This document shows, in pieces, positions 46,699 through 58,806 of a DNA stretch of 64,000 nucleotides. Both the position numbers and the translations under genes were made by a program. The stretch lies in IMG/VR virus record IMGVR_UViG_2778261087_000003; one strand, written 5' to 3'. The notes under the pieces were generated by a model. It had not been told where the DNA came from and made no database searches. It saw only the letters and a list, made by a program, of their open reading frames with translations. Origin of the DNA: a virus. Taxonomy: Duplodnaviria; Heunggongvirae; Uroviricota; Caudoviricetes. Within the stretch, counting starts at the first letter, position 1, and each line of letters starts with the position of its first letter.

Positions 46699-47049
46699 AT
46701 GCACAATAACGTTCTCAATGTTAGCCGTTCAATTCAGACAATCAGAGACTGCACCAGTGTGGTGGCATCAATCCCATTGCGGAACAGCATAGACGAACTG
46801 CAAATTCGTGTATTGAATCCGAATCAGGCTAATAAGCAATTGCGCTTTATTTTGACGCTGAAAAGTGAAACAGAGGGGATAAAGCACAGCGTAAAAGTGT
46901 TTTCTGAGGCCATTCTGCTTAATGGGAAGCTCCGGCATCTGGTAAGGCCAGAACGTCAATATCCTGACGTCCTGGCGCGTGAAAAAGACCTTCTTTCTGA
47001 AGTTCAGGATAGGGTGATCGATTTCGTCAAATGCTATCCCCTGCATTGA
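46699..47049 (+). CDS. hypothetical protein (divergent from hot)
   Basis: 116-aa ORF, weak SD; only plus-strand ORF in this block. Confidence 0.3.
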   Translation: MHNNVLNVSRSIQTIRDCTSVVASIPLRNSIDELQIRVLNPNQANKQLRFILTLKSETEGIKHSVKVFSEAILLNGKLRHLVRPERQYPDVLAREKDLLSEVQDRVIDFVKCYPLH

Positions 47050-47318
47050 GGGCAGGTGTTCCCTTCCGCAAAGTAGGGAAAATTGCTATCAAGTTCATCA
47101 CACCATCTGCGATGGTCGTAGCACCAAAACGCCTCCCACGGTGCACGGAAATACTTCATCCACCAGGACACTCGATCAGGTATATCTGCTGGTGGCAGTT
47201 CTTCTGGCAATAATTTGCCTGATAATTCCCTTTCCGCCCGCGACAGCATTTTTTTGAGGCTCGCGTTCTCTTTTTCAAGCTCATCTACGCGCACCTGTAA
47301 TTCAGCTTTCGTTGGCAT
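47034..47318 (-). CDS. hypothetical coiled-coil protein
   Basis: Start taken at MPTKAELQVRVDELEK; longer ORF to 47399 overlaps the upstream gene. Confidence 0.4.
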   Translation of the reverse strand: MPTKAELQVRVDELEKENASLKKMLSRAERELSGKLLPEELPPADIPDRVSWWMKYFRAPWEAFWCYDHRRWCDELDSNFPYFAEGNTCPQCRG

Positions 47319-48240
47319 GGTCCACCTCATGCTTTTCAGCCACCAGCGGCAATAAAGCCCTGGCCATCTTATGAACCAATAGTGCATCAATAATGCCAAG
47401 CGTATGCCCCGGCTTAATGTTTAATGCCGCCTCAAGGTGACACCTTTCCAGGTCACTTTTCTCGGCTTGTTTATGATGATCTGGTGTAATAACGTCGCCC
47501 AAAACACGGCTAATTCTTTCTCGTAATTGCTGGGTGCCAGCACACTTGATCGCTGTATCGTGGAGACGGTTAACCAGTTCGCGATAAACATGCGGCTTAA
47601 TGCGGATACGTTCACCGGTGACGCCCTTTCCTGGCGCTGGCACCGAACTATCCGGAATATCCGGATAGTTGCCAGCCTCGTAAGCTACCCACAGCCAGTG
47701 CATGAATGTTTCAGTGGACACACAACCACAGTCCACATCGATTTTCCCGCGTTGCTGTTCCAGCCATTGCCCAAAATCCAACCTGTAAGTCTTACTTTCA
47801 AGTTCATCACCATTGAACTCGACTTTCTGCGACGCTATGAGAGCTGATTCGTATTGTTCGCGAGTGACAACTGACTGGTATTCATCGCTATCAAGGCCAC
47901 CAATTGGAAGCTCAATCTCACAACAAAAATTGCGCCCAAAGAAAGTGTCTTTTTTGTGGTCTGAGCCAAAAGCAAAAGTCGCGCATGGTGCCATTAAATT
48001 GACACTGGGTAGGTAACAATAACTCATTCCATCAGGCCACCCGCCGCACTTAGGCAGCTCCTTCACTAACAAGTCGATAAGCTTCATTTTTTTATCATCT
48101 TTGCAAGCCGCCAAAGCCATTTGGGCAAGTGCCAATACTTCATCTGCCGTATATCCAGCACCGTGACCATACATTTCGATACGGGAAATAATCTCTGATA
48201 TACGCTCTTCAGTGATTCTGGTCATTTCTTTTTGCGCCAT
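47302..48240 (-). CDS. hypothetical protein (312 aa)
   Basis: Long ORF, coupled to neighbours. Confidence 0.55.
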   Translation of the reverse strand: MAQKEMTRITEERISEIISRIEMYGHGAGYTADEVLALAQMALAACKDDKKMKLIDLLVKELPKCGGWPDGMSYCYLPSVNLMAPCATFAFGSDHKKDTFFGRNFCCEIELPIGGLDSDEYQSVVTREQYESALIASQKVEFNGDELESKTYRLDFGQWLEQQRGKIDVDCGCVSTETFMHWLWVAYEAGNYPDIPDSSVPAPGKGVTGERIRIKPHVYRELVNRLHDTAIKCAGTQQLRERISRVLGDVITPDHHKQAEKSDLERCHLEAALNIKPGHTLGIIDALLVHKMARALLPLVAEKHEVDHANES

Positions 48241-48596
48241 TTCTTTTCACATTCCTTAGTCCATTTTTCAATGTTCATTTTGGCAATATCGGTCATTCCA
48301 TCACCTAAGAAATACTTTCTCCGGTATGTCTTGCACTTAAACCACACTACAACAGCCACCAGCCAGAAAATAAAAGGCCATACAGCAATACCAACGACTG
48401 CCGCGATAAAGCTCAATATCCATAAATGAAGCTCTCCAACTTCTGTTTCCGGCAATATTCTTAAAGAATTAAACAGTAGGCTGAACGCATGGTCGTATGC
48501 ATTGGCAGTATAAGACATGCAATCCATATAATTAAAGTCATAGCCTGCGGCTGCCGCCCATAATGGGCGGTCAAGAAAATGTTTTAGTGTCATCAT
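48222..48596 (-). CDS. hypothetical membrane protein (124 aa)
   Basis: Hydrophobic helices (ILSFIAAVVGIAVWPFIFWLVAVVVWF). Confidence 0.45.
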   Translation of the reverse strand: MMTLKHFLDRPLWAAAAGYDFNYMDCMSYTANAYDHAFSLLFNSLRILPETEVGELHLWILSFIAAVVGIAVWPFIFWLVAVVVWFKCKTYRRKYFLGDGMTDIAKMNIEKWTKECEKKWRKKK

Positions 48597-48602
48597 ATAA
48601 AT

Positions 48603-48896
48603 TTAAGGTTCAGACCAGTTATCTTCAATAGCAATGCTTAATCTTTGTAGCCATTCTGCTAATTTCAGCATTGCTTCTCTTTCGCTTAAACCACGAGGAA
48701 AATCATCAAGCGAAATTGTTGGCTTGAAGCCCCCGTAATTATCCATTTCAACTGTCAGATTTTGCTCCAGCACGGTATTCCTTACGCGGCTATTGTGCCG
48801 AAGCAAATATACTGAACGTGATTTATTGGTTTTGTGGTCGAACGTATATTCGGTAAGTATCATCTGACTTCCGCCATGATTATTACCGCGCCACAT
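48603..48896 (-). CDS. hypothetical protein (97 aa)
   Basis: ORF in a tight minus-strand array. Confidence 0.45.
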   Translation of the reverse strand: MWRGNNHGGSQMILTEYTFDHKTNKSRSVYLLRHNSRVRNTVLEQNLTVEMDNYGGFKPTISLDDFPRGLSEREAMLKLAEWLQRLSIAIEDNWSEP

Positions 48897-48919
48897 AATT
48901 ACTCCGTGTTAATTGAAAT

Positions 48920-49201
48920 TTAGCTATTAATCTTCACTTTTATCGCGAACACCTTTACCGGTTTATCACCGAAGTGTGGATGTGTGATTGTTTTTATTTC
49001 ATATCCGTTATACGGGACGTCAATTCTGCGACTGAAGTCTTCGCGCTTCGGATATCCCTTTGTGATAATCAGGCGGTAATACTTACGGTTAACGAGGCGC
49101 TTATTCCAGTAGTCATTACACAGGCGATACTCTTCCGTTTTCTCCCCGCGAATCATGGCATCGAAGTATTCACCTTTAACGGCAAGTTGCAGGTTAGCCA
49201 T
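48920..49201 (-). CDS. hypothetical protein, possibly ASCH/PUA-like
   Basis: Start at MANLQ with GGAGGTGA SD, overlapping upstream stop (TAATG). Confidence 0.45.
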   Translation of the reverse strand: MANLQLAVKGEYFDAMIRGEKTEEYRLCNDYWNKRLVNRKYYRLIITKGYPKREDFSRRIDVPYNGYEIKTITHPHFGDKPVKVFAIKVKINS

Positions 49202-49461
49202 TACCTCACCTCCAGTCTCCATACCGCCTGACCAATCCGGCTGGCATAGGTATCTTTGGATACTGTTCCGTCTTTAGCCATCTCCATAAGAATTTTGCGC
49301 AAATCTGCCGAACGCCATTCTTCATCAGGAAATTCCTTCTCCATTGCCAACCGCAGACTCCAGGTTGCCATCCTGAATGGATATTCCCCGCCGAGAACTT
49401 TCTCTTGCAGGGCTGCACGGGAACGCATCACCTGCAAAATCTTCTCTTTCACATCCATCAT
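49201..49461 (-). CDS. hypothetical protein
   Basis: Start at MMDVKE with AGGAGGTGA SD right after the upstream stop. Confidence 0.4.
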   Translation of the reverse strand: MMDVKEKILQVMRSRAALQEKVLGGEYPFRMATWSLRLAMEKEFPDEEWRSADLRKILMEMAKDGTVSKDTYASRIGQAVWRLEVR

Positions 49462-50018
49462 TTCACCTCCTGCGGCGGTTCCGGTAGCGGCATCCAGTGT
49501 GATGGTATCCACGACGCACCAGGTATTACCCACCCATCATTAGCGTCAGGATGCCCCGGGATGTAAGTCGCCCATTTCATTCGCCAGTCACCTTTCCTGT
49601 CAAACTCCCTGGCAACAAGAACGGCTGTTTTGGTATCCGGCATTCGCTCACTACAGCTTATCCAGCCATCCGGAGTTACCGGAGAGTTGCCATTTACATC
49701 GAAGTTTGGCTCTGCGTCCTGAACCAGGAGGATGTAACCATTCTTGGCTGTATCAAGTTCTAACGCCTCGGTGACGGTGCCGAAATAGCGATTACCTAAA
49801 TCAGCATCACAAGTGCTTACATCAATGGAAACTTCCATGCCTTCGATTAATTCTGGTAAGTTGTAAGTTTGGTTTACAGGCTCTGCTTCCAGCGATGCCA
49901 GAGCAATTCGTGCCAGTTCTTCCGCTTCTTCTGCTGGCAGTACAACGTTGCTACCCGGTCCGTATGTTTCGCGCCACTGCTTGATTGTCAGCAGTCGCTC
50001 TTTGGTAATAGTGATCAT
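49458..50018 (-). CDS. hypothetical protein, paralogue of 50893-51255
   Basis: Shares the N-terminal I-T-K-E-R and ELARIALASLEAEPV motifs. Confidence 0.55.
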   Translation of the reverse strand: MITITKERLLTIKQWRETYGPGSNVVLPAEEAEELARIALASLEAEPVNQTYNLPELIEGMEVSIDVSTCDADLGNRYFGTVTEALELDTAKNGYILLVQDAEPNFDVNGNSPVTPDGWISCSERMPDTKTAVLVAREFDRKGDWRMKWATYIPGHPDANDGWVIPGASWIPSHWMPLPEPPQEVK

Positions 50019-50530
50019 GCCGCGTTTCCTTCTTTCTTATTAACAATTACACCGTCATATATTTCATTAAGGTGCCCTCTCAACTCCATGCGCCTTAATG
50101 CAGATAACATGTAATCGCATTCAACCTGCTTATTTCCAGTAAATGGCTTATCGTCAGGATTACCCCAACAGCAATTACCCTTGGGCCACCCATGTACTTT
50201 CCGTACTCTTCCGTTAACAACGTGAAGTAATCCCCAGCCAGGTGGTAAATCCTCAACTGAAATAATTCCCGGCTCACTAATAAAGAATCGCCAGTCGCCC
50301 ATTCCAAGAGATGGATTTTTACGAAAACGCTTTTTTCTATCTGCCAACAAGTCAGCACGAGAACACTTCGCCTCTATCAGGCATGATGCTGAATTTCTGA
50401 ATCCCATAGCATCTGGCTGTTCTCCGGTACTGGTTACAGCTATAAAGCGGTCATGAAAACAAACCTTGAACCCGTTGCGCTTAAGGAACTTATACGCAAT
50501 CTGACAGAGTTCGCGGTGTGTTAACGCCAT
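50015..50530 (-). CDS. hypothetical protein with possible PD-(D/E)xK nuclease motif
   Basis: Start at MALTHREL with AAGGAGA SD; D...EAK motif. Confidence 0.5.
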   Translation of the reverse strand: MALTHRELCQIAYKFLKRNGFKVCFHDRFIAVTSTGEQPDAMGFRNSASCLIEAKCSRADLLADRKKRFRKNPSLGMGDWRFFISEPGIISVEDLPPGWGLLHVVNGRVRKVHGWPKGNCCWGNPDDKPFTGNKQVECDYMLSALRRMELRGHLNEIYDGVIVNKKEGNAA

Positions 50531-50892
50531 ATCACTCTCCTTTAGTGCGCAAGTGGTTTTTCCAGCGGTTTTGCGCCGCGCTGGGCTTTTTGCAAAAACC
50601 ACAATCCATCATCCCGTAATATTTCATCAACCCCATCCGTCGGTTGCTGAGTCTCACCCACTGCCAGACGCCAGGAGCGTTTCTACGAACTAACAGAATC
50701 TTTGCTTTACGGTTTTTCATCGCTTTGCTCTCCTGCGTCTCTTTGCTGCTCGTCGTGCCGCTGCAATACCGGTATGGCGGCGCTTTGGTGCCGGGATGAT
50801 GTTGTCAGCCATCAGGACATGTGGCTTTGCAATTAGCGCAGAAGCCCAAAAACGAGTCGGGTACGGTAACAAGCCGAAAAATGCCACACGCA

Positions 50893-51255
50893 TTACTCAT
50901 CTCCCTTACCCTGAAGCATGGCAGCGCGGCAGGCGTTCCAGCCATCAACATAATCAAACGTATTGCTATCGTCTGGCTCGATTTCATCCGGCACTACCGG
51001 CTCTGGTTGGATAGTGACGTTGGCAAAGGCAGCACGCAAACCGGCCTTAATTTCCTCTACTTCATCAGCGCCTAGCGATGAATCTGACAATGCGTGATGG
51101 AATGCGTAAGCCATGTCGTCGTTTACTGCAACCGGTTCGGCTTCCAGTGATGCCAGCGCAATTCGTGCCAGTTCCATTTGTTCGCCACGGGTAAGCCCGT
51201 TATCAAGCGGATTTTTAATGAATAATTCGATACGTTCTTTGGTAATAGTGGTCAT
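50893..51255 (-). CDS. hypothetical protein, paralogue of 49458-50018
   Basis: MTTITKERIE...ELARIALASLEAEPV. Confidence 0.5.
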   Translation of the reverse strand: MTTITKERIELFIKNPLDNGLTRGEQMELARIALASLEAEPVAVNDDMAYAFHHALSDSSLGADEVEEIKAGLRAAFANVTIQPEPVVPDEIEPDDSNTFDYVDGWNACRAAMLQGKGDE

Positions 51256-51461
51256 TTGTTAATCCTCAAAACTTTATGCCCGGGCGCAAAAGCACGTGTT
51301 TTGTCTTTACTTATTCGCCACCCGTCTTTACGGGCCTCTTTTGCACAACCAGACCATGACGTACCGATATACTCACCGAAGTCTGGCACTGGATATACAC
51401 CTTCCGTACACTGGCGGCAGTCACAATAGAGATGCATGGTGTAACTTGCAGCGATAGCCAT
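51252..51461 (-). CDS. hypothetical small Cys-rich protein
   Basis: Start at MAIAASYT with the same AAGGAGAGTGAT SD-containing repeat as the gene at 50530. Confidence 0.4.
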   Translation of the reverse strand: MAIAASYTMHLYCDCRQCTEGVYPVPDFGEYIGTSWSGCAKEARKDGWRISKDKTRAFAPGHKVLRINK

Positions 51462-51462
51462 A

Positions 51463-51948
51463 TCACTCTCCTTTGATGCGAATGCCTGTTGCAATGCTGT
51501 TTATGATGCTGTCAGTGCATGGGGTAGAAAGCTGGGCATCTCCAGCAATTTTCATGACCTCAACATCTGCATATCGAATACCGAGGTGTATCAGACCGGC
51601 TATACCTGACTTAAGCCGAGCATTTTCCATAAACAGATCCTTTGCCCGCTGTTTTTCTGCCTCAAGCTCAACGCGCAACTTCCCTACCGTTAGCGCAATA
51701 TCCTCGTTCTCCTGGTCGCGGGATTTGATGTATTGCTGGTTTCTTTCCCGTTCATCCAGTAGTGCCAGCACGGTTTCTGGTCCGGCCAGAAATTTGAAGG
51801 CGTTGAGCGCATCAATATCCACACCGTAATCTTTAAGTTCCTGTTCGCTTATCAGATCATCATCAACTGGCAACATTAACAGGCGTTCCATTGCCGGAAT
51901 TGCACGTTCTGCCGCCTCACGCAGTGCCTGATAGTTAATTTTGGTCAT
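51463..51948 (-). CDS. hypothetical protein (161 aa)
   Basis: ORF in coupled array. Confidence 0.5.
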   Translation of the reverse strand: MTKINYQALREAAERAIPAMERLLMLPVDDDLISEQELKDYGVDIDALNAFKFLAGPETVLALLDERERNQQYIKSRDQENEDIALTVGKLRVELEAEKQRAKDLFMENARLKSGIAGLIHLGIRYADVEVMKIAGDAQLSTPCTDSIINSIATGIRIKGE

Positions 51949-51949
51949 A

Positions 51950-52249
51950 TCACATCACCCTGAAGCCGTTGCATTTACGTAAAAAATCGCAGATATAGCC
52001 CTTCATTTTTTCATGCCAATCTCGATCATTCCCATTGCACCACCCATCAGGTGGAGTCCAGTTTTCTATCAGAGCAGCCATTTTCTTTGCTTTCGCCGGA
52101 GTAGCTGTTGCGGTATCGCAGTAATGACGAGTGTCAACCAACGTATCCATACCATCGATATCAAGTACGCAAAACCATGTGTGATTCGGCATTTCAACAG
52201 ATGGTATTTGTTGCCCACGTCGACGTTTATCAATAAGACATACAGTCAC
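51950..52249 (-). CDS. hypothetical protein (99 aa)
   Basis: ORF in coupled array. Confidence 0.45.
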   Translation of the reverse strand: MTVCLIDKRRRGQQIPSVEMPNHTWFCVLDIDGMDTLVDTRHYCDTATATPAKAKKMAALIENWTPPDGWCNGNDRDWHEKMKGYICDFLRKCNGFRVM

Positions 52250-52980
52250 TGGTTGCCTCCTTTGCGAAGCTGGGCAGCAAAGTCAACTAACCACTCAGTC
52301 ATTTCAACCTTCCCTACCAGGTCTGAACCAGGGTGCATACAGCAATCACTCTGCGCCGCTTTGAAATCCTTATACTCATATTCTTGGGCCACCAGATTTT
52401 TTGCAGCTTCTATAGCAGCATCCACCCCCTGCGCCCGGACTTCAGCCAAGAAAGCGTCGGTGGCTGACATATTTCCTGTTGCCTTCATGGCCTTCAAAAT
52501 AACCAGAACGCCATCTCGCCCAACCACCTCAGCGATAACCTCGGTGTTGTCGCCAACAACATCGCAGAATGCCTGAAATGCCTTACGAGCCAGCTCATTC
52601 TCCACTGCCAGCGCCGTGCGATTACCCTCCAGCTCTGCAATGCGCTGTTTTGCGGCATCCAGTTCAATCGACAATTTTTCCAACTGCTCTTGATGCTTCT
52701 TGTATTCCTGATATGCGTGCCAAGACTGACCTTTGCGCACACTATCAGTGATATCAGTAATCTGTTCTGGTGTTAGCGTGGTCAGTGGCTGTGATGGGAA
52801 AATAAGCACTTTCCCGGAATCCCAATCAAAACCAGCGTGAATTGACTGAACCTCAACTGAAGGTGTTGAACCAATGCTGCCAGGCGAATGAACAACGATT
52901 GTTACATCCATATCGCGACGATGGCTGTGGTTGTTGGACAAAATACGATTCACCAACTCAGAAAATTTGGAAATTTTCAT
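52246..52980 (-). CDS. hypothetical protein, paralogue of 53264-53974
   Basis: Shared ATDAFLAE(V/I)RA segment. Confidence 0.55.
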   Translation of the reverse strand: MKISKFSELVNRILSNNHSHRRDMDVTIVVHSPGSIGSTPSVEVQSIHAGFDWDSGKVLIFPSQPLTTLTPEQITDITDSVRKGQSWHAYQEYKKHQEQLEKLSIELDAAKQRIAELEGNRTALAVENELARKAFQAFCDVVGDNTEVIAEVVGRDGVLVILKAMKATGNMSATDAFLAEVRAQGVDAAIEAAKNLVAQEYEYKDFKAAQSDCCMHPGSDLVGKVEMTEWLVDFAAQLRKGGNQ

Positions 52981-53300
52981 GCTGATTCCCCTTTCTCTGC
53001 TCTCTCCTGTCGGAACATCACTATCATCAGGTCGCCTTTTGTCGCTATCCTGGCTGTTGTACCTGGTTCAATGCGGCTAAGCTCAAATGCGTCATAGAAC
53101 GCTTCTAATGCCTTCTGGCGTAGTTCCTGTTTGCGCCGTTTTTTCCACTGTTTTAGGAAAATGGAACCCAGCCATCGCCATGTGCGGGACATGATGTAAA
53201 GCCAACCGAGAAGTGCCAGACCGGTATTTAGGAGCGTATCGATCGTTATTGTCGTGTCGATATTCACTGGCTGCTTCCTTTGCGAATCTGTTCCGCCCAT
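52977..53300 (-). CDS. hypothetical membrane-anchored protein
   Basis: Hydrophobic segment LLNTGLALLGWLYIM, basic stretch. Confidence 0.4.
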   Translation of the reverse strand: MGGTDSQRKQPVNIDTTITIDTLLNTGLALLGWLYIMSRTWRWLGSIFLKQWKKRRKQELRQKALEAFYDAFELSRIEPGTTARIATKGDLMIVMFRQERAEKGESA

Positions 53301-53974
53301 TCTTCAAGGGATTTCTCCGCATATTCACCAGACAGGCCATCAATCGGATGCGCTTCATTAGCCAACTCTTCTTTCGCTGACAAAATCATGCGTGTAACGT
53401 CGAAAACTTCACGCAAAGACTTATTGATAAATCCGTGATTGAACGCAGCAGCAAGACGGCTGGCGGTATAGTTAATCCCCTCGTTGCGTGCTTCCGCACG
53501 AATTTCAGCCAGAAAAGCATCGGTAGCTGGAGTTTCGCTGTGGTGCAGGGCATCGTTGATAATCATTGCAGCAACTCCGGCCTGCCCTGCATCCGTGACC
53601 GACACATGATCAAGAGTTACAGCCATTGCGAGTTTCAGCCCGGCGTTCTCTGCCACCAGAGCCGCGAGCTTAGTCTCAAGCGGTGCTATTCGGCACATAG
53701 CATCAATATTTGTGTCCTCCAGGCGCTTAATTTCGCCCAGGAGTGCCAGCGCAACTTTTGGTGGGATAGCCGCGATATAACGGGCATTAGCACCAGCATT
53801 CCTTTGCCCATCAATGCCAGGCCAGTCAATAAAGTATCCGCAATGCCTACCCTCAGACGTGCGCGCAGGATAAATGCCGTTATGACCCGGCAAAATATAT
53901 GCTACCCATTCATCTTGCGTTGCCTGTTCCGCCGCCTCGCGCAGTTCTTGATAGTCAATTGTCATTCTCGCCAT
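53264..53974 (-). CDS. hypothetical protein, paralogue of 52246-52980
   Basis: Shared ATDAFLAEIRA segment. Confidence 0.55.
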   Translation of the reverse strand: MARMTIDYQELREAAEQATQDEWVAYILPGHNGIYPARTSEGRHCGYFIDWPGIDGQRNAGANARYIAAIPPKVALALLGEIKRLEDTNIDAMCRIAPLETKLAALVAENAGLKLAMAVTLDHVSVTDAGQAGVAAMIINDALHHSETPATDAFLAEIRAEARNEGINYTASRLAAAFNHGFINKSLREVFDVTRMILSAKEELANEAHPIDGLSGEYAEKSLEEWAEQIRKGSSQ

Positions 53975-54606
53975 CCTTCACAGTTGTAATCACGACAGCC
54001 TTCAAAATCATATGGGCTGTACTGCCAGGTGATTTTTCCGCAATGCGGACAATTCCAACGCACCTTCCCGCTTCGCGACTTCTTTCTTCTGTTCTGCTTT
54101 TTCAACCAGTCAGGCATGATCAAACCTGCGCCCTGAACCATTGTTCTGCGGTTAAAGTTATTGATATTGAACGTCCGGCGCTTTGCTGCATCAGCAATGG
54201 AAAATGGCAACCAAACTATTCCTGGTTCGTTTTTGTTGGCGACGCTAAAGATGGTCGCTTTACTGAAGTCATCTGTTGGCAATCCACCGTGTTGAAGCCA
54301 GTAAACATCGTTGCCGTTCCAGCTACCTTTTTTGTAGGCCACATACGCAGTGCAATCTGACTCAATCAGGCTTTCTGTAGGGATGTACTGGCAATCAACG
54401 TGCCACACAGCCATTGCATCCACACTATCGGCACAAACAGGCTGATCGATATCTCGCCCACAATTCCAGGCTTTTTGGGCTTCTTCCAGCGTGTAAACAT
54501 GAGCGCGATCGATATCAGAACTGTAACCATTGCCGTTATGGCAATGGAATGAGGCGTTATTACCCACAGTTTCACGCAAGCACATCATGTAAAAACGGTT
54601 ACTCAC
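53962..54606 (-). CDS. hypothetical Cys-rich protein (214 aa)
   Basis: Multiple Cys pairs including CPHCGK. Confidence 0.5.
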   Translation of the reverse strand: MSNRFYMMCLRETVGNNASFHCHNGNGYSSDIDRAHVYTLEEAQKAWNCGRDIDQPVCADSVDAMAVWHVDCQYIPTESLIESDCTAYVAYKKGSWNGNDVYWLQHGGLPTDDFSKATIFSVANKNEPGIVWLPFSIADAAKRRTFNINNFNRRTMVQGAGLIMPDWLKKQNRRKKSRSGKVRWNCPHCGKITWQYSPYDFEGCRDYNCEGWRE

Positions 54607-54814
54607 TGGATGCCTCCCAGCAAATTTGTCTTATATAAGAACTGTTAACGCGCTTTACTTTCCCGTCGAACTCCAGTTTCTTTAGACGACGCAAAACGTA
54701 TGCCGTTTTGAGTGTGCGATATTTATCCCTAAGCCAGTTGGTCACGACGTAAGTCATACAGCGCCCGTGTTCTTCCAACACCCGAACTATTTCTTCGTCG
54801 GTTGGCTTGCTCAT
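54599..54814 (-). CDS. hypothetical small protein, possible winged-helix
   Basis: 71-aa ORF, coupled. Confidence 0.4.
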   Translation of the reverse strand: MSKPTDEEIVRVLEEHGRCMTYVVTNWLRDKYRTLKTAYVLRRLKKLEFDGKVKRVNSSYIRQICWEASSE

Positions 54815-55032
54815 TTTGTCGCTCCTTCAGCTTTCTCTACTTTCGCTGCCATGATTTCCAGCTTTTGTGCTGCCGATGCCGCTAACCTGTGAAATTCTTC
54901 ATCTGTTTCAACTGGAATTGGTACAAACCTGACACCAATTTGAGCAAGGCTATGCGCCATTTCGAGACTTGCTCTTAACTCTGCTGGGGATGCTTTATTC
55001 AGGCCGACTTCCTCACAAATAACTGATTGCAT
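54811..55032 (-). CDS. hypothetical small protein
   Basis: 73-aa ORF, coupled. Confidence 0.4.
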   Translation of the reverse strand: MQSVICEEVGLNKASPAELRASLEMAHSLAQIGVRFVPIPVETDEEFHRLAASAAQKLEIMAAKVEKAEGATK

Positions 55033-55041
55033 ACGCTCGCC

Positions 55042-55767
55042 CTACTGAATACGCTCAAACTCGATTACCCAAACCCAGGGATTAGCGCTCCAGCTTTCTT
55101 CGCCGTAGATGGATTCCCACAGGCGCTGGAACGCAACCTTGGCCATTGCGAAATCCCCCTTGGGAGTAAGGAATGTTCCCGGGTGATCAGGAAGCAAACT
55201 TCCAGCAGGCGGAACACCCTCATCCCTTGCATCGCATTCGCTGATATCGTTCAACCGCTCAACGCGCACGTTGGTAATTTCCACCAGGATGCGTGATGCC
55301 CATCGCGGCATGTGAATTGATGGACGCCACCCACCATCAAACTTTTCATTCACAGTGTGAGGTTTCCAGTCGGCATCATCGGGTATCGACCATAAACCGT
55401 AATCACCAGGCTTTTGCTCACAACTGGCCCGATAAATCCTTGCTGCGTTCTTCTCATCGCCACGACAAAGGTTGTCGTTCCAGTCCACACTGCAACCATC
55501 TTCATTGCCTAATATCGCCCATGTTTCACGAACCCAAATTCGATCGCCGACGATACCAAAGGGGCAATTGAAAACACTGCTTACACCATCAGCCCCGTAC
55601 CACTGAAAACCTGCACCAATTTTTCTAACCATCACTGGTGCTTCTGGACCAACTTCCGCAGGCTGATTTTTCATTATCCGCCGCGTCTGCGTTTTCCTTC
55701 CTTCGAGGATGGCCCGGACCATCTCATCGTTAAAAATCATGCCGCGCTCTTTCACTTCGCCTTTCAT
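55042..55767 (-). CDS. hypothetical protein (241 aa), first gene of a C1 operator-controlled operon
   Basis: AGGGGGA SD; N-terminal MIFNDEMVRAILEGRKTQTRR. Confidence 0.55.
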   Translation of the reverse strand: MKGEVKERGMIFNDEMVRAILEGRKTQTRRIMKNQPAEVGPEAPVMVRKIGAGFQWYGADGVSSVFNCPFGIVGDRIWVRETWAILGNEDGCSVDWNDNLCRGDEKNAARIYRASCEQKPGDYGLWSIPDDADWKPHTVNEKFDGGWRPSIHMPRWASRILVEITNVRVERLNDISECDARDEGVPPAGSLLPDHPGTFLTPKGDFAMAKVAFQRLWESIYGEESWSANPWVWVIEFERIQ

Positions 55768-55890
55768 GCATCCCCCTTACCCATGTGCGACGATGCCGCC
55801 AAAAGTGATAGAGAACAGCCAGAAATAGATCGCGGCCATAATGATTTTGAATGCCGTGTTCATATTTTCAGCTCCTGTGATTGATTGGAT

Positions 55891-55922
55891 ACATGCCGCG
55901 CCTTGCGGCATGTTTTTATTTT
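55891..55922 (+). terminator. strong hairpin plus T tract (plus-strand terminator-like) in the operator-proximal leader
   Basis: acatgccgc-gcctt-gcggcatgt then tttttatttt. Confidence 0.4.
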
Positions 55923-55945
55923 CACTTTCTCTGTTTTAAAAATCA

Positions 55946-55962
55946 ATATTTATTAGAGCAAT
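55946..55962 (-). promoter_or_regulatory. C1 operator (ATTGCTCTAATAAATAT)
   Basis: One mismatch to consensus; overlaps the stop of the HAD phosphatase gene. Confidence 0.6.
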
Positions 55963-56468
55963 TATTGTTGATGGAGAAGCGCGTTTTCATACTCCCTGAC
56001 CATTAACGTAAGCACGCCGTGCCTCCTGAAAACACGCGCCACTTCAATCTTATCTTCCAGCGCGAACGCAATTTTACTTAGACCAATTTTCTTCAGGAGA
56101 TCAATCTTTGCTGGGCCGTCATTTCTGTCATCGGTGGCAGGACGCATAGATAGCAAAGGCTCAGCCCCATTTGTTACGTGCTTACGCAACCAAGCTCGTG
56201 TTTTATCCCTGGCTATCTCACAGCGCCCGGTTACAAACCAGAGCGTGTAAATGCTGGACAACTGGCGCACCATATCAATAACTGGAGTGATGGGAGCATC
56301 AGTGTCACAGGCAAGGTTAAACTCGTTCCAGTGCTCTGTTAATGCACCTTTGCCAGGTGGTGGAAGTAAATGCAGCCTGTCTTCCGTTGCCTCTGATATC
56401 GTTCCATCAATATCTACTATGACGATGTACGGACGTTCCTGGTGTGCGTGTTTATTGAAAATACTCAA
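55962..56468 (-). CDS. HAD-superfamily phosphatase-like protein
   Basis: VIVDIDGTI motif I near the N-terminus. Confidence 0.55.
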   Translation of the reverse strand: MSIFNKHAHQERPYIVIVDIDGTISEATEDRLHLLPPPGKGALTEHWNEFNLACDTDAPITPVIDMVRQLSSIYTLWFVTGRCEIARDKTRAWLRKHVTNGAEPLLSMRPATDDRNDGPAKIDLLKKIGLSKIAFALEDKIEVARVFRRHGVLTLMVREYENALLHQQ

Positions 56469-56540
56469 ATGCCCTCCTCATTGGACGAAAAAAATGCTGG
56501 TGGGCGCACTCCACCAGCATTAAAAGTGACACTGTAACTA

Positions 56541-57803
56541 TCAGCGAACGTAAATAGTGCCGCCGTTCTCTTTTTCCCATGCATCGCTACGTGCATAGCA
56601 AACATCGAGAAGTCTTCTTGCCGCAGTTTCCTCTAAACCCAATTCGACAACCAACTGCTCATGACGGCGGGTAACCACATCAAACAGGGTATGCAGCCCT
56701 TTAGTTGCCAGATCATCAATGAATTCCGGTTCGAACGGCAGCTCTGCATCTGCCAACATAACCTCTTGCGCCCACTCAACTCGACGGACCAGTTCCGGGC
56801 GGCGGCTTTCCATCTCTTTACAGATCAATTCATGGAAGAACTCTACCCAACCTTCCGGCTGGAACTCGCGGAAAATTGCCAACGGCTGGAAGTTTGGCAT
56901 CAACCATTCGTTGATTCGGATATCAATGGCATAGCCCATGTCGCAGCAGAACTGATAAGCAAAGTCCAGCTTAGAAACGATATAAGGACGCTCGTTATTG
57001 AACTCTTTAGGCGATGAGATCCCATAAGCCAGGAGGCGCGGGAAGAAGGAGATTTGCCCTAACGTCGGATGAAGTTTGCTTGCAGGGAAACGGCGCTCAG
57101 TAATGCCATACATTTCCTTCTTGAGCGTCGCAAATTTGGCATTCTCATTAACCAGCGCGGTAACCTCTGCTTTTTTATTAGCAAATGCCACGCGCGCCTC
57201 GCTTGCATCTTTAATAGTTTTTTTGAGCTGTTGGTTAAGGTCGGCGACCTGCTTACGCAGTTCCTGTCGCTCGCTTTTAGCTTTGTTATAGCGTTTCTCA
57301 AGGTTAAAAGGATCAAGTTTCATGATCTCTTTATATTGAGATTTTAGCGTTGAAATCTGTGAGTTCCGCAGTTCAACCATCGCGGTCATTTCATTGAGTT
57401 TTGTTTCCAGCTCAATGCTTATACGTTCGGCATTATCAGCACGCTGGTTGGCGTCATGCGTCGCATCGTCGATCGCGTCCTGTTGCTGGCGTTTCAAATG
57501 TTCAATTTGCAGCTGAAGCTCTTCAATTTCTTTACCCTTCAGACCAAGATCCAACTGCATATTTTCAGCTGCATCTACCAGGGAGTTATGGCTATCAGCT
57601 TCTGCGTTATAAACATCAATAAGCTGTGCGTGAAGCATCTCCGCTGACTGAACCGCATTATCAAAAAAACGCGCTGTGAGGTCATCACAACTAACGCGGC
57701 GTTGCGCGGCCCGGATGTTCTGGATAATGGCCGGGATACCGGCATTCAGGACGTCAGGGATAGATACATTTTCGATTGATTGGTTTTGTGCTGAAGTGCT
57801 CAT
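56541..57803 (-). CDS. hypothetical coiled-coil protein (420 aa)
   Basis: Long heptad-rich central region. Confidence 0.55.
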   Translation of the reverse strand: MSTSAQNQSIENVSIPDVLNAGIPAIIQNIRAAQRRVSCDDLTARFFDNAVQSAEMLHAQLIDVYNAEADSHNSLVDAAENMQLDLGLKGKEIEELQLQIEHLKRQQQDAIDDATHDANQRADNAERISIELETKLNEMTAMVELRNSQISTLKSQYKEIMKLDPFNLEKRYNKAKSERQELRKQVADLNQQLKKTIKDASEARVAFANKKAEVTALVNENAKFATLKKEMYGITERRFPASKLHPTLGQISFFPRLLAYGISSPKEFNNERPYIVSKLDFAYQFCCDMGYAIDIRINEWLMPNFQPLAIFREFQPEGWVEFFHELICKEMESRRPELVRRVEWAQEVMLADAELPFEPEFIDDLATKGLHTLFDVVTRRHEQLVVELGLEETAARRLLDVCYARSDAWEKENGGTIYVR

Positions 57804-57804
57804 T

Positions 57805-58023
57805 TCAAAGTTCCGTATTAGCTTGTGCTTCGGTCATTTTTCCTAAGTATGAAGGAGGAAGGACTACGCAATTTGTATCCAGTCCCTCACCTATGGCAGC
57901 CTGTAAAATTCTGGCTAAGGTGAGTCTCTTGTTGCGATACCTGGTGATGACATGCCTGATACCGCCGGTCGGCGTAACAAAGGCGATCAGCCAGTAGTGA
58001 TATTTCCGTCGGAATGGCCACAT
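57805..58023 (-). CDS. hypothetical small protein
   Basis: AAGGTG SD; immediately downstream of a C1 operator. Confidence 0.35.
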   Translation of the reverse strand: MWPFRRKYHYWLIAFVTPTGGIRHVITRYRNKRLTLARILQAAIGEGLDTNCVVLPPSYLGKMTEAQANTEL

Positions 58024-58037
58024 AGCGCACCTTGTAG

Positions 58038-58054
58038 ATTGCTCTAATAAAAAA
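58038..58054 (+). promoter_or_regulatory. C1 operator (ATTGCTCTAATAAAAAA)
   Basis: Inverted relative to the operator at 58087; the pair flanks a hairpin. Confidence 0.55.
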
Positions 58055-58075
58055 CGTGATGAGTGTACATCACGT
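58047..58075 (-). terminator. hairpin with flanking A/T tracts (terminator after the upstream operon)
   Basis: acgtgatg-agtgta-catcacgt; A6 before and T3A5 after. Confidence 0.45.
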
Positions 58076-58086
58076 TTTAAAAATAT

Positions 58087-58103
58087 GGAATTATTAGAGC
58101 AAT
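58087..58103 (-). promoter_or_regulatory. C1 operator (ATTGCTCTAATAATTCC)
   Basis: Read on the minus strand. Confidence 0.55.
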
Positions 58104-58104
58104 A

Positions 58105-58806
58105 TTATTCTGATTCTCGCTCAAAAAATGAGCTGATAAGGGGAAGCCAATCCTCTGACACTTCGCGAGGTCGCGGTTTGCCGTGGAAAAAGATTATTCG
58201 GCAGTCTTTTGGTAATGCCCCATTCCCCCTGGAGTAACGCGCGCTCGCATATTTTGAACCAGGTTCCACAACATCGGCCTTGTAACTTACAAACCATCCT
58301 GGATACAGATCCTGAAATGCTGGTGTATCATCGCCCATAACCTTTCGTAAGAACCCCTGGTCACCCCAACACTCAGTAGTGACACAACGAGAAATCCAAC
58401 CTTCCGGATCTTGCCAGAATGAACTCCAGATATGCGCTTTAACACTATTTGGTATCCACAGGGCACCGCTGCCACGATATTGTGGATGGTAAAAATCCCT
58501 AAGCATGGTGAAGCTGGTTGGTGGATGCTCTAGGATTGGGCGTATATCACCGGCAATAACCGTGTCCAAATCCAGATAGAACAGATCATCGGTTATATCC
58601 GGTCGGAACAACTCGATTTTCGCCCACCAGCCACGGCACTTTTGCCACTGGTTGATCAATGGGACAACTTTGACGCCAGGTACATGTAAACGCTTCAGGT
58701 CTGTCAGGCAAATAATTTCATAGCCTTTTGGCAGTTGATTAACCAGCCACTGCACATCGGAAGCGTTATAGTCACCACCAGAGCGAAAAACTAAAGCAAT
58801 CTTCAT
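58105..58806 (-). CDS. hypothetical protein with DxD motif, possibly glycosyltransferase-like
   Basis: [11 protein letters not shown] motif; 233 aa. Confidence 0.5.

Follow-up and report, generated by a model that had tools for sequence, protein, structure and literature searches.

For the locus reported here, the closest described counterpart in lambdoid phages is the concept of 'short conserved boundary sequences' (Susskind & Botstein 1978; Clark et al. 2001, both as cited in PMC3029335); PMC3029335 adds that most mosaic joints lack such sequences. The Ea22 and exo-xis genes are known to be mosaic and DUF551 has been described as a portable domain (PMC10834534), and the interval from pmgT to humD in P1-like phage-plasmids has been named 'variable region 8' (PMC9603915). 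Here we analysed a 64,000-nucleotide (nt) stretch of Caudoviricetes DNA (IMG/VR record IMGVR_UViG_2778261087_000003), hereafter the window, in which a short junction sequence, termed J, recurs between accessory genes on the minus strand together with two further repeated boxes. The repeated boxes are probably 'linkers', conserved at module boundaries, through which recombination has exchanged accessory genes that are unrelated to one another, and not a relic of duplication.

Repeated boxes at gene boundaries

The junction 18-mer GCCATATCACTCTCCTTT was found in exactly two copies in the window (50526-50543 and 51457-51474), which agrees with the original prediction of a repeated junction of about 18 bp except that its coordinates (50528-50545 and 51459-51476) were both 2 nt too high. 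No additional site with three or fewer mismatches occurred in the 64 kb and two matches were obtained in 0 of 100 shuffles. The repeat extends to 24 nt with 22/24 identity (50526-50549 and 51457-51480), and its exact 18 nt form the longest exact direct repeat in 48900-52300, exceeding all 300 first-order Markov simulations (mean 11.2, max 16). J (AAAGGAGAGTGATATGGC) reads AAA GGA GAG TGA T ATG GC, that is K-G-E-stop, one base and Met-Ala; the Shine-Dalgarno sequence expected in the junction is present as AAGGAG, 6 nt 5' of the ATG, and the stop codon lies 1 nt before the start.

Two further boxes are shared by a pair of genes whose products begin with an I-T-K-E-R motif (ITKER genes): a start-codon box of 23 nt with 91% identity (49996-50018 versus 51233-51255) and a box encoding ELARIALASLEAEPV of 44 nt with 89% identity (49876-49919 versus 51131-51174). 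All three boxes are collinear in both units. The N-terminal motifs that had been noticed in the two ITKER proteins of 186 and 120 amino acids (aa), MxTITKER and ELARIALASLEAEPV, proved genuine, and alignment of the presumed paralogues gave significant similarity (BLASTP 28/49 identities, pairwise E = 1e-8) that was limited to residues 1-48, with nothing else significant. The junctions and boxes are as follows.

51457..51480, minus strand: junction J1, comprising the last codons of the Ead/Ea22 gene (..I-K-G-E), AAGGAG, TGA, a single spacer base and ATG-GC, with which the 69-aa gene begins
50526..50549, minus strand: junction J2, the same sequence as J1, between ORF62 (..T-K-G-E, stop) and the 171-aa gene
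50889..50910, minus strand: degenerate J-like junction GGTAAGGGAGATGAGTAATGCG from ITKER-120 (..Q-G-K-G-D-E, stop) to ORF58, with a TAATG stop/start overlap
51233..51255, minus strand: ITKER start box 1, ATGACCACTATTACCAAAGAACG, the right-hand boundary of the 69-aa cassette, where the RCS47 and Stx2a F578 homology block begins
49996..50018, minus strand: ITKER start box 2, the right-hand boundary of the 171-aa cassette
51131..51174, minus strand: ELARIALASLEAEPV box 1, a boundary between modules within the ITKER-120 gene, present as an isolated matching segment in loci L003, L004 and L005
49876..49919, minus strand: ELARIALASLEAEPV box 2, an intragenic module boundary in ITKER-DUF551; homology with loci L001, L002, L004 and L005 begins exactly at 49876

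The genes that these boxes separate, given in coding order, are the following (ORF, open reading frame).

51463..51948, minus strand: Ead/Ea22-like protein of 161 aa (Ead161), C-terminus ..ATGIRIKGE; Pfam PF13935, E = 4.6e-32
51252..51461, minus strand: 69-aa Cys-rich cassette gene; phrog_926, annotated as a 210-nt coding sequence in RCS47 and NZ_LR890206.1
50893..51255, minus strand: ITKER-120, a member of the hyper-mosaic EaA-like family, here without DUF551
50717..50893, minus strand: ORF58, basic, 58 aa; phrog_13831, annotated in RCS47, MH422554 and TL-2011b
50532..50720, minus strand: ORF62, basic, 62 aa; phrog_1380, a 189-nt coding sequence by the Prokaryotic Genome Annotation Pipeline (PGAP)
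50015..50530, minus strand: 171-aa cassette gene, predicted PD-(D/E)xK nuclease (SPO1766/3dnx-like)
49458..50018, minus strand: ITKER-DUF551 protein, 186 aa; Pfam PF04448, E = 8.4e-21, residues 118-183, at 75 bits against a gathering cutoff of 22

The original prediction described tandem duplicated gene modules in which each ITKER gene is followed by a different small gene. On the coding strand the 69-aa and 171-aa genes lie upstream of their ITKER genes, the 171-aa gene is not small, and the two modules share neither related cassettes nor ITKER proteins that are alike beyond the N-terminal ~48 aa. The impression of repeated modules is a real architectural rule, made by linkers and not by duplication.

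Breakpoints and reassorted flanks

Comparison with individual phages placed the ends of homology on the boxes themselves. Blocks shared with RCS47, P1 MH422554 and the Shiga toxin (Stx) phages Stx2c 5044 and Stx2a F578 end at 49876, 50018, 50526, 51233 and 51480, all of them positions at which one of the three repeat boxes begins or ends, and on the ORF62 side of RCS47 the block 50526-50721 (100% identity) overlaps the block 51233-51480 by exactly the 24 nt of J. RCS47 and Stx2a F578 carry ORF62, J, the 69-aa gene and ITKER-DUF551 in this order; P1 MH422554, Stx2c 5044 and TL-2011b carry ORF62, J, the 171-aa gene and ITKER-DUF551. In other phages each cassette has counterparts of 90-100% identity beside different neighbours, and the neighbouring 'copy' in the window is far more distant. 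The proposal of module shuffling by recombination at a conserved junction is supported by homology blocks that end on the boxes and by flanks that differ among phages. The 99.3% identity over 846 nt to Stx2c phage 5044 indicates that exchange with lambdoid phages was probably recent. In MH422554, Ead161 abuts ORF58 directly through a J-like junction (..GIRINGGE, stop), and the window's unit of the 69-aa gene and ITKER-120 is therefore an indel bounded by J-type sequences.

The wider distribution of J was surveyed by exact matching of the 18-mer in IMG/VR, which gave at least 132 sites in at least 120 stretches. Because the proteins are themselves mosaics, single linkage merged complete upstream ORFs, and likewise ITKER C-termini, into 2-3 clusters; the groups given here were therefore defined from the last 60 aa of the upstream proteins, with the 9-aa tail excluded, and with a 70% coverage rule. 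Across the at least 132 sites, J joins at least 14 upstream C-terminal families, with no detectable similarity between clusters, to at least 14 downstream ORF families, and at least 41 different pairings occur. On the downstream side conservation does not continue past ATGGC; on the upstream side, with one representative per combination, it reaches up to ~39 nt in the main subtype (CGCGCCGCTGGCATTCGCATCAAAGGAGAGTGATATGGC), so that unrelated proteins share the tail RAAGIRIKGE. Other J subtypes have the upstream tails AAAGKGE, AAMLHGKGE or NHLRTKGE, and the tail NACRAAMLQGKGE, as at the degenerate junction 50889..50910, precedes canonical J in IMG/VR.

The window's own flanks were found in every arrangement. 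Counting 100-nt flanks with at least 85% identity to those of the window, J joined Ead161 to the 171-aa gene at least 8 times, ORF62 to the 171-aa gene at least 6 times and ORF62 to the 69-aa gene at least 12 times among the sites listed; Ead161 joined to the 69-aa gene is the window's J1 and was also found in NZ_LR890206.1, and therefore all four flank combinations exist. A deletion between J1 and J2 of the window would be expected to yield the combination of Ead161 with the 171-aa gene. IMG/VR loci L014, L017, L030, L038 and L064 each contain J twice as an exact match, with 576-921 bp between the copies; in such phages a unit made up of J, a cassette and an ITKER-type gene with KGE at its end is repeated in tandem, the cassettes being of 171, 87, 69 and 95 aa. 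Among plasmids in PLSDB, the 171-aa cassette with J2 was found in 290 (at least 80% coverage) and the complete unit of the 69-aa gene and ITKER-120 in 12. The 18-mer also gave 58 matches in species-dereplicated genomes, of which only three records were named Enterobacteriaceae; these matches, almost all in unrelated taxa, are probably due to chance.

The cassette after J is most often the 171-aa nuclease-like family (43/132 among the sites listed), and the gene that follows the cassette begins M[TIS]T[ILF]T[KRD].. (M-T-T-I-T-K-E type) in almost every listed site. Conservation at the ITKER start begins at the ATG and runs downstream as a mirror image of J, and it follows from these two edges that the cassette is exactly one ORF. 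The ITKER-type proteins are themselves mosaic, with 18 architectures among 74 unique proteins, and their homology is typically lost just past ..ASLEAEPV; other motifs that recur are APPAPVVPD, GWNACRAAMLQG and the DUF551 start. A protein-database search with ITKER-120 returned 3067 cluster representatives of widely differing lengths, some of which match the query along its length at 96-100% identity but have a DUF551 domain in addition.

Several side observations concern the same gene families. The J-preceded 121-aa cassette of downstream family D12 (MALTKKQRAELRMKFGGRCAYCGCELGEKWHADHV..) appears to resemble an HNH endonuclease. A 312-aa ORF 2 kb downstream (47302-48240, minus strand) has a degenerate ITKER-like N-terminus (MAQKEMTRITEERI..ALAQMALAA) and a C-terminal ~130 aa (AGNYPDIPDSS...HEVDHANES) common to ITKER-type proteins of the IMG/VR loci, and is therefore another member of the mosaic family. 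The nearest plasmid, NZ_LR890206.1, is 99.5% identical elsewhere, lacks the DUF7739 gene, and has homology interrupted at 49497-49639 inside the DUF551 domain and at 51780-52246, including inside the Ead161 gene; these interruptions are further mosaic joints off J. A second repeated junction family occurs at 52246-52275 and 53264-53293 (minus strand), where the boundaries from a 244-aa gene to DUF7739 and from Ead233 to DUF4752 share ~27 nt (cagNttcgcaaaggaRgcaRccaGTGA), with upstream C-termini RKGGNQ and RKGSSQ and a GTGA stop/start overlap.

The accessory gene block and the 171-aa protein

Positions 40000-64000 of the window matched ~95-kb IncY P1-like phage-plasmids of Klebsiella and E. coli with up to 96% coverage at 98.9% identity, and the window is a P1-like (IncY) phage-plasmid. 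Its segment 45642-47804 corresponds to the phd/humD/hot side of RCS47 (Punavirus) and 55676-58192 to the pap/pmgS side, both at 98-99% identity, and the interior at ~47.8-55.7 kb is mosaic. The block under study lies between conserved pmgS/pap and hot/humD/phd-doc and has variable content; it sits in the published variable region 8 (PMC9603915), in keeping with the variable block that had been predicted. No phage record covered 80% or more of a 3.4-kb query from the block, which marks this region as mosaic, and the best phage matches were Stx-converting phages, P1 variants, RCS47 and TL-2011b.

Gene families in the block are those of the lambdoid exo-xis or 'ea' region, namely Ead/Ea22 (PF13935), DUF551 (PF04448), DUF7739 and a weak ASCH match in Pfam, and the PHROG families matched are all of unknown function. 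The minus-strand order is DUF7739 (99 aa), Ead/Ea22 (161 aa), J1, the 69-aa gene, ITKER-120, the J-like junction, ORF58, ORF62, J2, the 171-aa gene, ITKER-DUF551 (186 aa), eaa (86 aa) and ASCH (93 aa). From DUF1382 (54.8 kb) to ASCH (48.9 kb) most junctions are coupled through ATGA, GTGA, TAATG or TGAnATG, and the Shine-Dalgarno sequence of the next gene usually lies inside the Lys-Gly codons of the upstream gene's C-terminal tail. Sigma-70-like promoter matches were depleted in 47000-56600 (3 versus 14.0 ± 3.6 in shuffles), which fits a single long operon. Terminator-like hairpins were enriched in this interval (19 versus 9.4), the strongest (56521-56493, minus strand; 55891-55913, plus strand) lying on either side of the pap gene. 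NCBIfam and PADLOC scans of ten proteins found nothing, and an Rfam scan of 47000-56500 returned only a sub-threshold GcvB match (E = 0.48).

For the 171-aa gene, a start at 50530 with a separate 62-aa ORF upstream had been predicted, and three lines of evidence agree: the modal length of homologues is 171 aa (cluster P0002 alone has 1363 members of that length), RefSeq/PGAP calls a 516-nt gene (171 aa) and a separate 189-nt ORF62, and the match between PHROG 1380 and ORF62 is full-length. Database proteins of 185-235 aa have unrelated N-terminal extensions that converge at ..KESDMALTH. In the proteins examined, these extensions are alternate-frame read-through of whichever gene lies upstream; they vary with the upstream gene and are not conserved. 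A real fusion of ORF62 and the 171-aa protein, suggested by the PHROG 9263 profile (230 aa) that spans both, was rejected, as the extended database proteins examined are alternate-frame read-throughs or fusions elsewhere, the members of PHROG 9263 themselves being uninspected. Some database proteins (P0004, P0033, P0009 and P0091) continue in frame from the 171-aa protein into the ITKER gene behind it, or carry the N-terminus of an Ead/Ea22 protein in front of the 171-aa body; such fusions may be real recombinants or frameshift or assembly artefacts.

The 171-aa protein has no Pfam, NCBIfam or PADLOC match and is predicted to be a PD-(D/E)xK nuclease of putative activity. Among 32 aligned homologues with identities as low as 59%, residues D40, E53 and K55 do not vary, giving the D...(D/E)-x-K motif that it shares with SPO1766 (PDB 3dnx) and other PD-(D/E)xK nucleases, and its AlphaFold model (pLDDT 85.8, pTM 0.80; predicted local-distance and template-modelling scores) has a restriction-endonuclease-like core fold. 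At the sequence level the PDB match reached only E = 0.2, and no Pfam or NCBIfam model matched. The entry 3dnx represents the MmcB-like DUF1052 family.

Origin of the boxes and comparison with known systems

The observations above, in which boundaries are conserved, flanks are combinatorial and breakpoints coincide with the boxes, can be brought together as follows. Lambdoid accessory genes of the exo-xis type occupy the variable region between pap and hot/humD, probably as one extended minus-strand operon with coupled translation. J comprises the last 3-13 codons of any upstream gene, a strong Shine-Dalgarno sequence, a stop and the ATG-GC with which the downstream gene begins. A second boundary is formed where the ITKER-type gene behind the cassette starts (ATGACCACTATTACCAAAGA..), and a third by the ELARIALASLEAEPV box inside that gene. 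The one ORF between J and the ITKER start, here the 69-aa or the 171-aa nuclease-like gene, would then be an exchangeable cassette, and homologous recombination over identities of 20-45 nt would swap, insert or delete cassettes without disturbing the reading frame or the translational coupling of any gene. Possible catalysts are RecA of the host or single-strand-annealing recombinases of the phage, and selection may also favour J, since the Shine-Dalgarno sequence, stop and start are preserved.

Five points weigh against this linker interpretation. In MH422554 the junction AACGGAGGTGAGTAGTG differs from J1 and from J2 and does not simply combine the two, so that one crossover between the genomes sampled would not give the arrangement in the window; an origin from a single crossover of RCS47-like and MH422554-like parents is thus unsupported as stated. 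The IMG/VR set was selected for the exact 18-mer, contains redundant prophages and gives lower bounds, and its counts are therefore not frequencies. Recombination was not directly observed, so that we infer homologous recombination, the enzymes and the frequency of exchange from the sequences compared. The AAGGAG, stop and ATG of J are under translational selection, which alone would keep ~10 nt similar. Finally, a full-text literature search for the 15-mer GGAGAGTGATATGGC gave no matches, and a prior description of this very junction in Clark et al. 2001 is possible.

Of the alternatives, functional constraint alone fares best, although it appears unlikely. Here J would be kept as an optimal translational-coupling or regulatory element, either as Shine-Dalgarno, stop and start or as a protein- or RNA-binding site, with no role in recombination. 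The spacing of these signals in J, the overlap or coupling of all operon boundaries, the many C-termini encoding K-G (AAAGGA) and the scarcity of promoter-like sites in the block (3 versus 14 expected) would all be expected under such constraint. However, identity reaches ~39 nt and includes positions outside the Shine-Dalgarno sequence, placing the tail RAAGIRIKGE on unrelated proteins, homology blocks break exactly at J, and all four flank combinations exist. A structured site is likewise disfavoured because RNA folding at J1 and J2 was no better than in shuffles (z = -0.55 and +0.86), a repeat search of the region found no inverted repeat at J, and no Rfam family was matched; an RNA-structure role for J was rejected on these z values.

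A more speculative proposal, to which we attach very little weight, is that J and the ITKER-start box constitute a dedicated single-ORF cassette-exchange system of enterobacterial temperate phages, in which nuclease cassettes (the 171-aa PD-(D/E)xK or HNH type) would cut cassette-free or differently filled junctions for homing-like replacement, or else that a cassette and its ITKER-type partner form a functional two-gene unit with the conserved N-terminal module as a common docking domain. Active mobility in the stricter sense, with J and the ITKER box as targets of a dedicated enzyme through nuclease-driven 'intronless homing' (PD-(D/E)xK or HNH cassettes) or an integron-like site-specific system, is highly improbable. 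It is in line with cassettes exactly one ORF long, with the predicted nuclease as the commonest cassette (43/132 among the sites listed) and with the HNH-like motif of family D12, but small proteins other than nucleases make up most cassette families, the 87-aa cassette equals the nuclease cassette in frequency and promiscuity among the sites listed, J has no inverted-repeat or hairpin structure, and no recombinase was named among the ten genes scanned against four family libraries, with PADLOC and NCBIfam finding nothing. True tandem duplication of a small gene and an ITKER gene, followed by divergence or gene replacement, is already largely refuted and scarcely credible: the three boxes do keep the same order in both units, and the unit is doubled in other phages too, but no alignment of the 69-aa with the 171-aa protein was obtained at E <= 100, the ITKER proteins diverge completely after EAEPV, only 91 nt of ~600-1100 nt are shared so that homology does not run along the unit, and each cassette has its 90-100% identical copies beside other neighbours in other phages.

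Returning to conserved linkers, three known systems can be compared with J. Integron cassettes and attC sites resemble the locus in having single-ORF cassettes in one orientation, arranged in an array with a recurring junction sequence. They differ in that J is coding and ribosome-binding sequence without an imperfect inverted repeat or folded site, and that no integrase was found among the ten genes scanned with four family libraries. An integron-like array was rejected, as J has no inverted repeat and folds no better than shuffles and no recombinase was named among these genes; cassette exchange is most simply explained by homologous recombination. The exo-xis region of lambda and Stx phages (ea22, orf60a-orf73) and the ea genes of P22 hold the same families (Ead/Ea22 PF13935, DUF551 and the EaA annotation), and in Stx2a F578 the homologous genes lie between int/xis and exo/bet; the difference is that in the window such genes have been transplanted into a P1-like variable region 8.

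The lambdoid linkers (Susskind & Botstein 1978; Clark et al. 2001, HK620) are closest to J, which is likewise short, conserved and placed at a gene boundary with non-homologous flanks, is likewise found in many phages with different partners, and likewise coincides with homology breakpoints. J differs from them in being asymmetric (upstream C-terminal tail, Shine-Dalgarno sequence, stop, ATG-GC), in having as its partner a second linker, formed by the stretch that encodes the N-terminus of the next gene, and in occurring in a P1-like phage-plasmid besides lambdoid and Stx phages. Stx-converting lambdoid phages and P1-like phage-plasmids have this linker and its cassettes in common, with identities reaching 99%, and the linker is therefore a concrete route of gene flow between both. 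Recognition of J also explains many spurious N-terminal extensions and fusions produced here by gene callers, fixes the start of the 171-aa gene, and draws attention to a widespread, uncharacterised accessory protein that is predicted to be PD-(D/E)xK nuclease-like.

The lack of shared sequence at most mosaic joints has favoured the view that these arise by illegitimate recombination and selection. J is a clean counter-example, in which a linker of 18-39 nt keeps frame and coupling while joining at least 14 upstream to at least 14 downstream unrelated families. In summary, the linker phenomenon is already known in kind, and the present instance is particularly clear, promiscuous and common to lambdoid phages and P1-like phage-plasmids.

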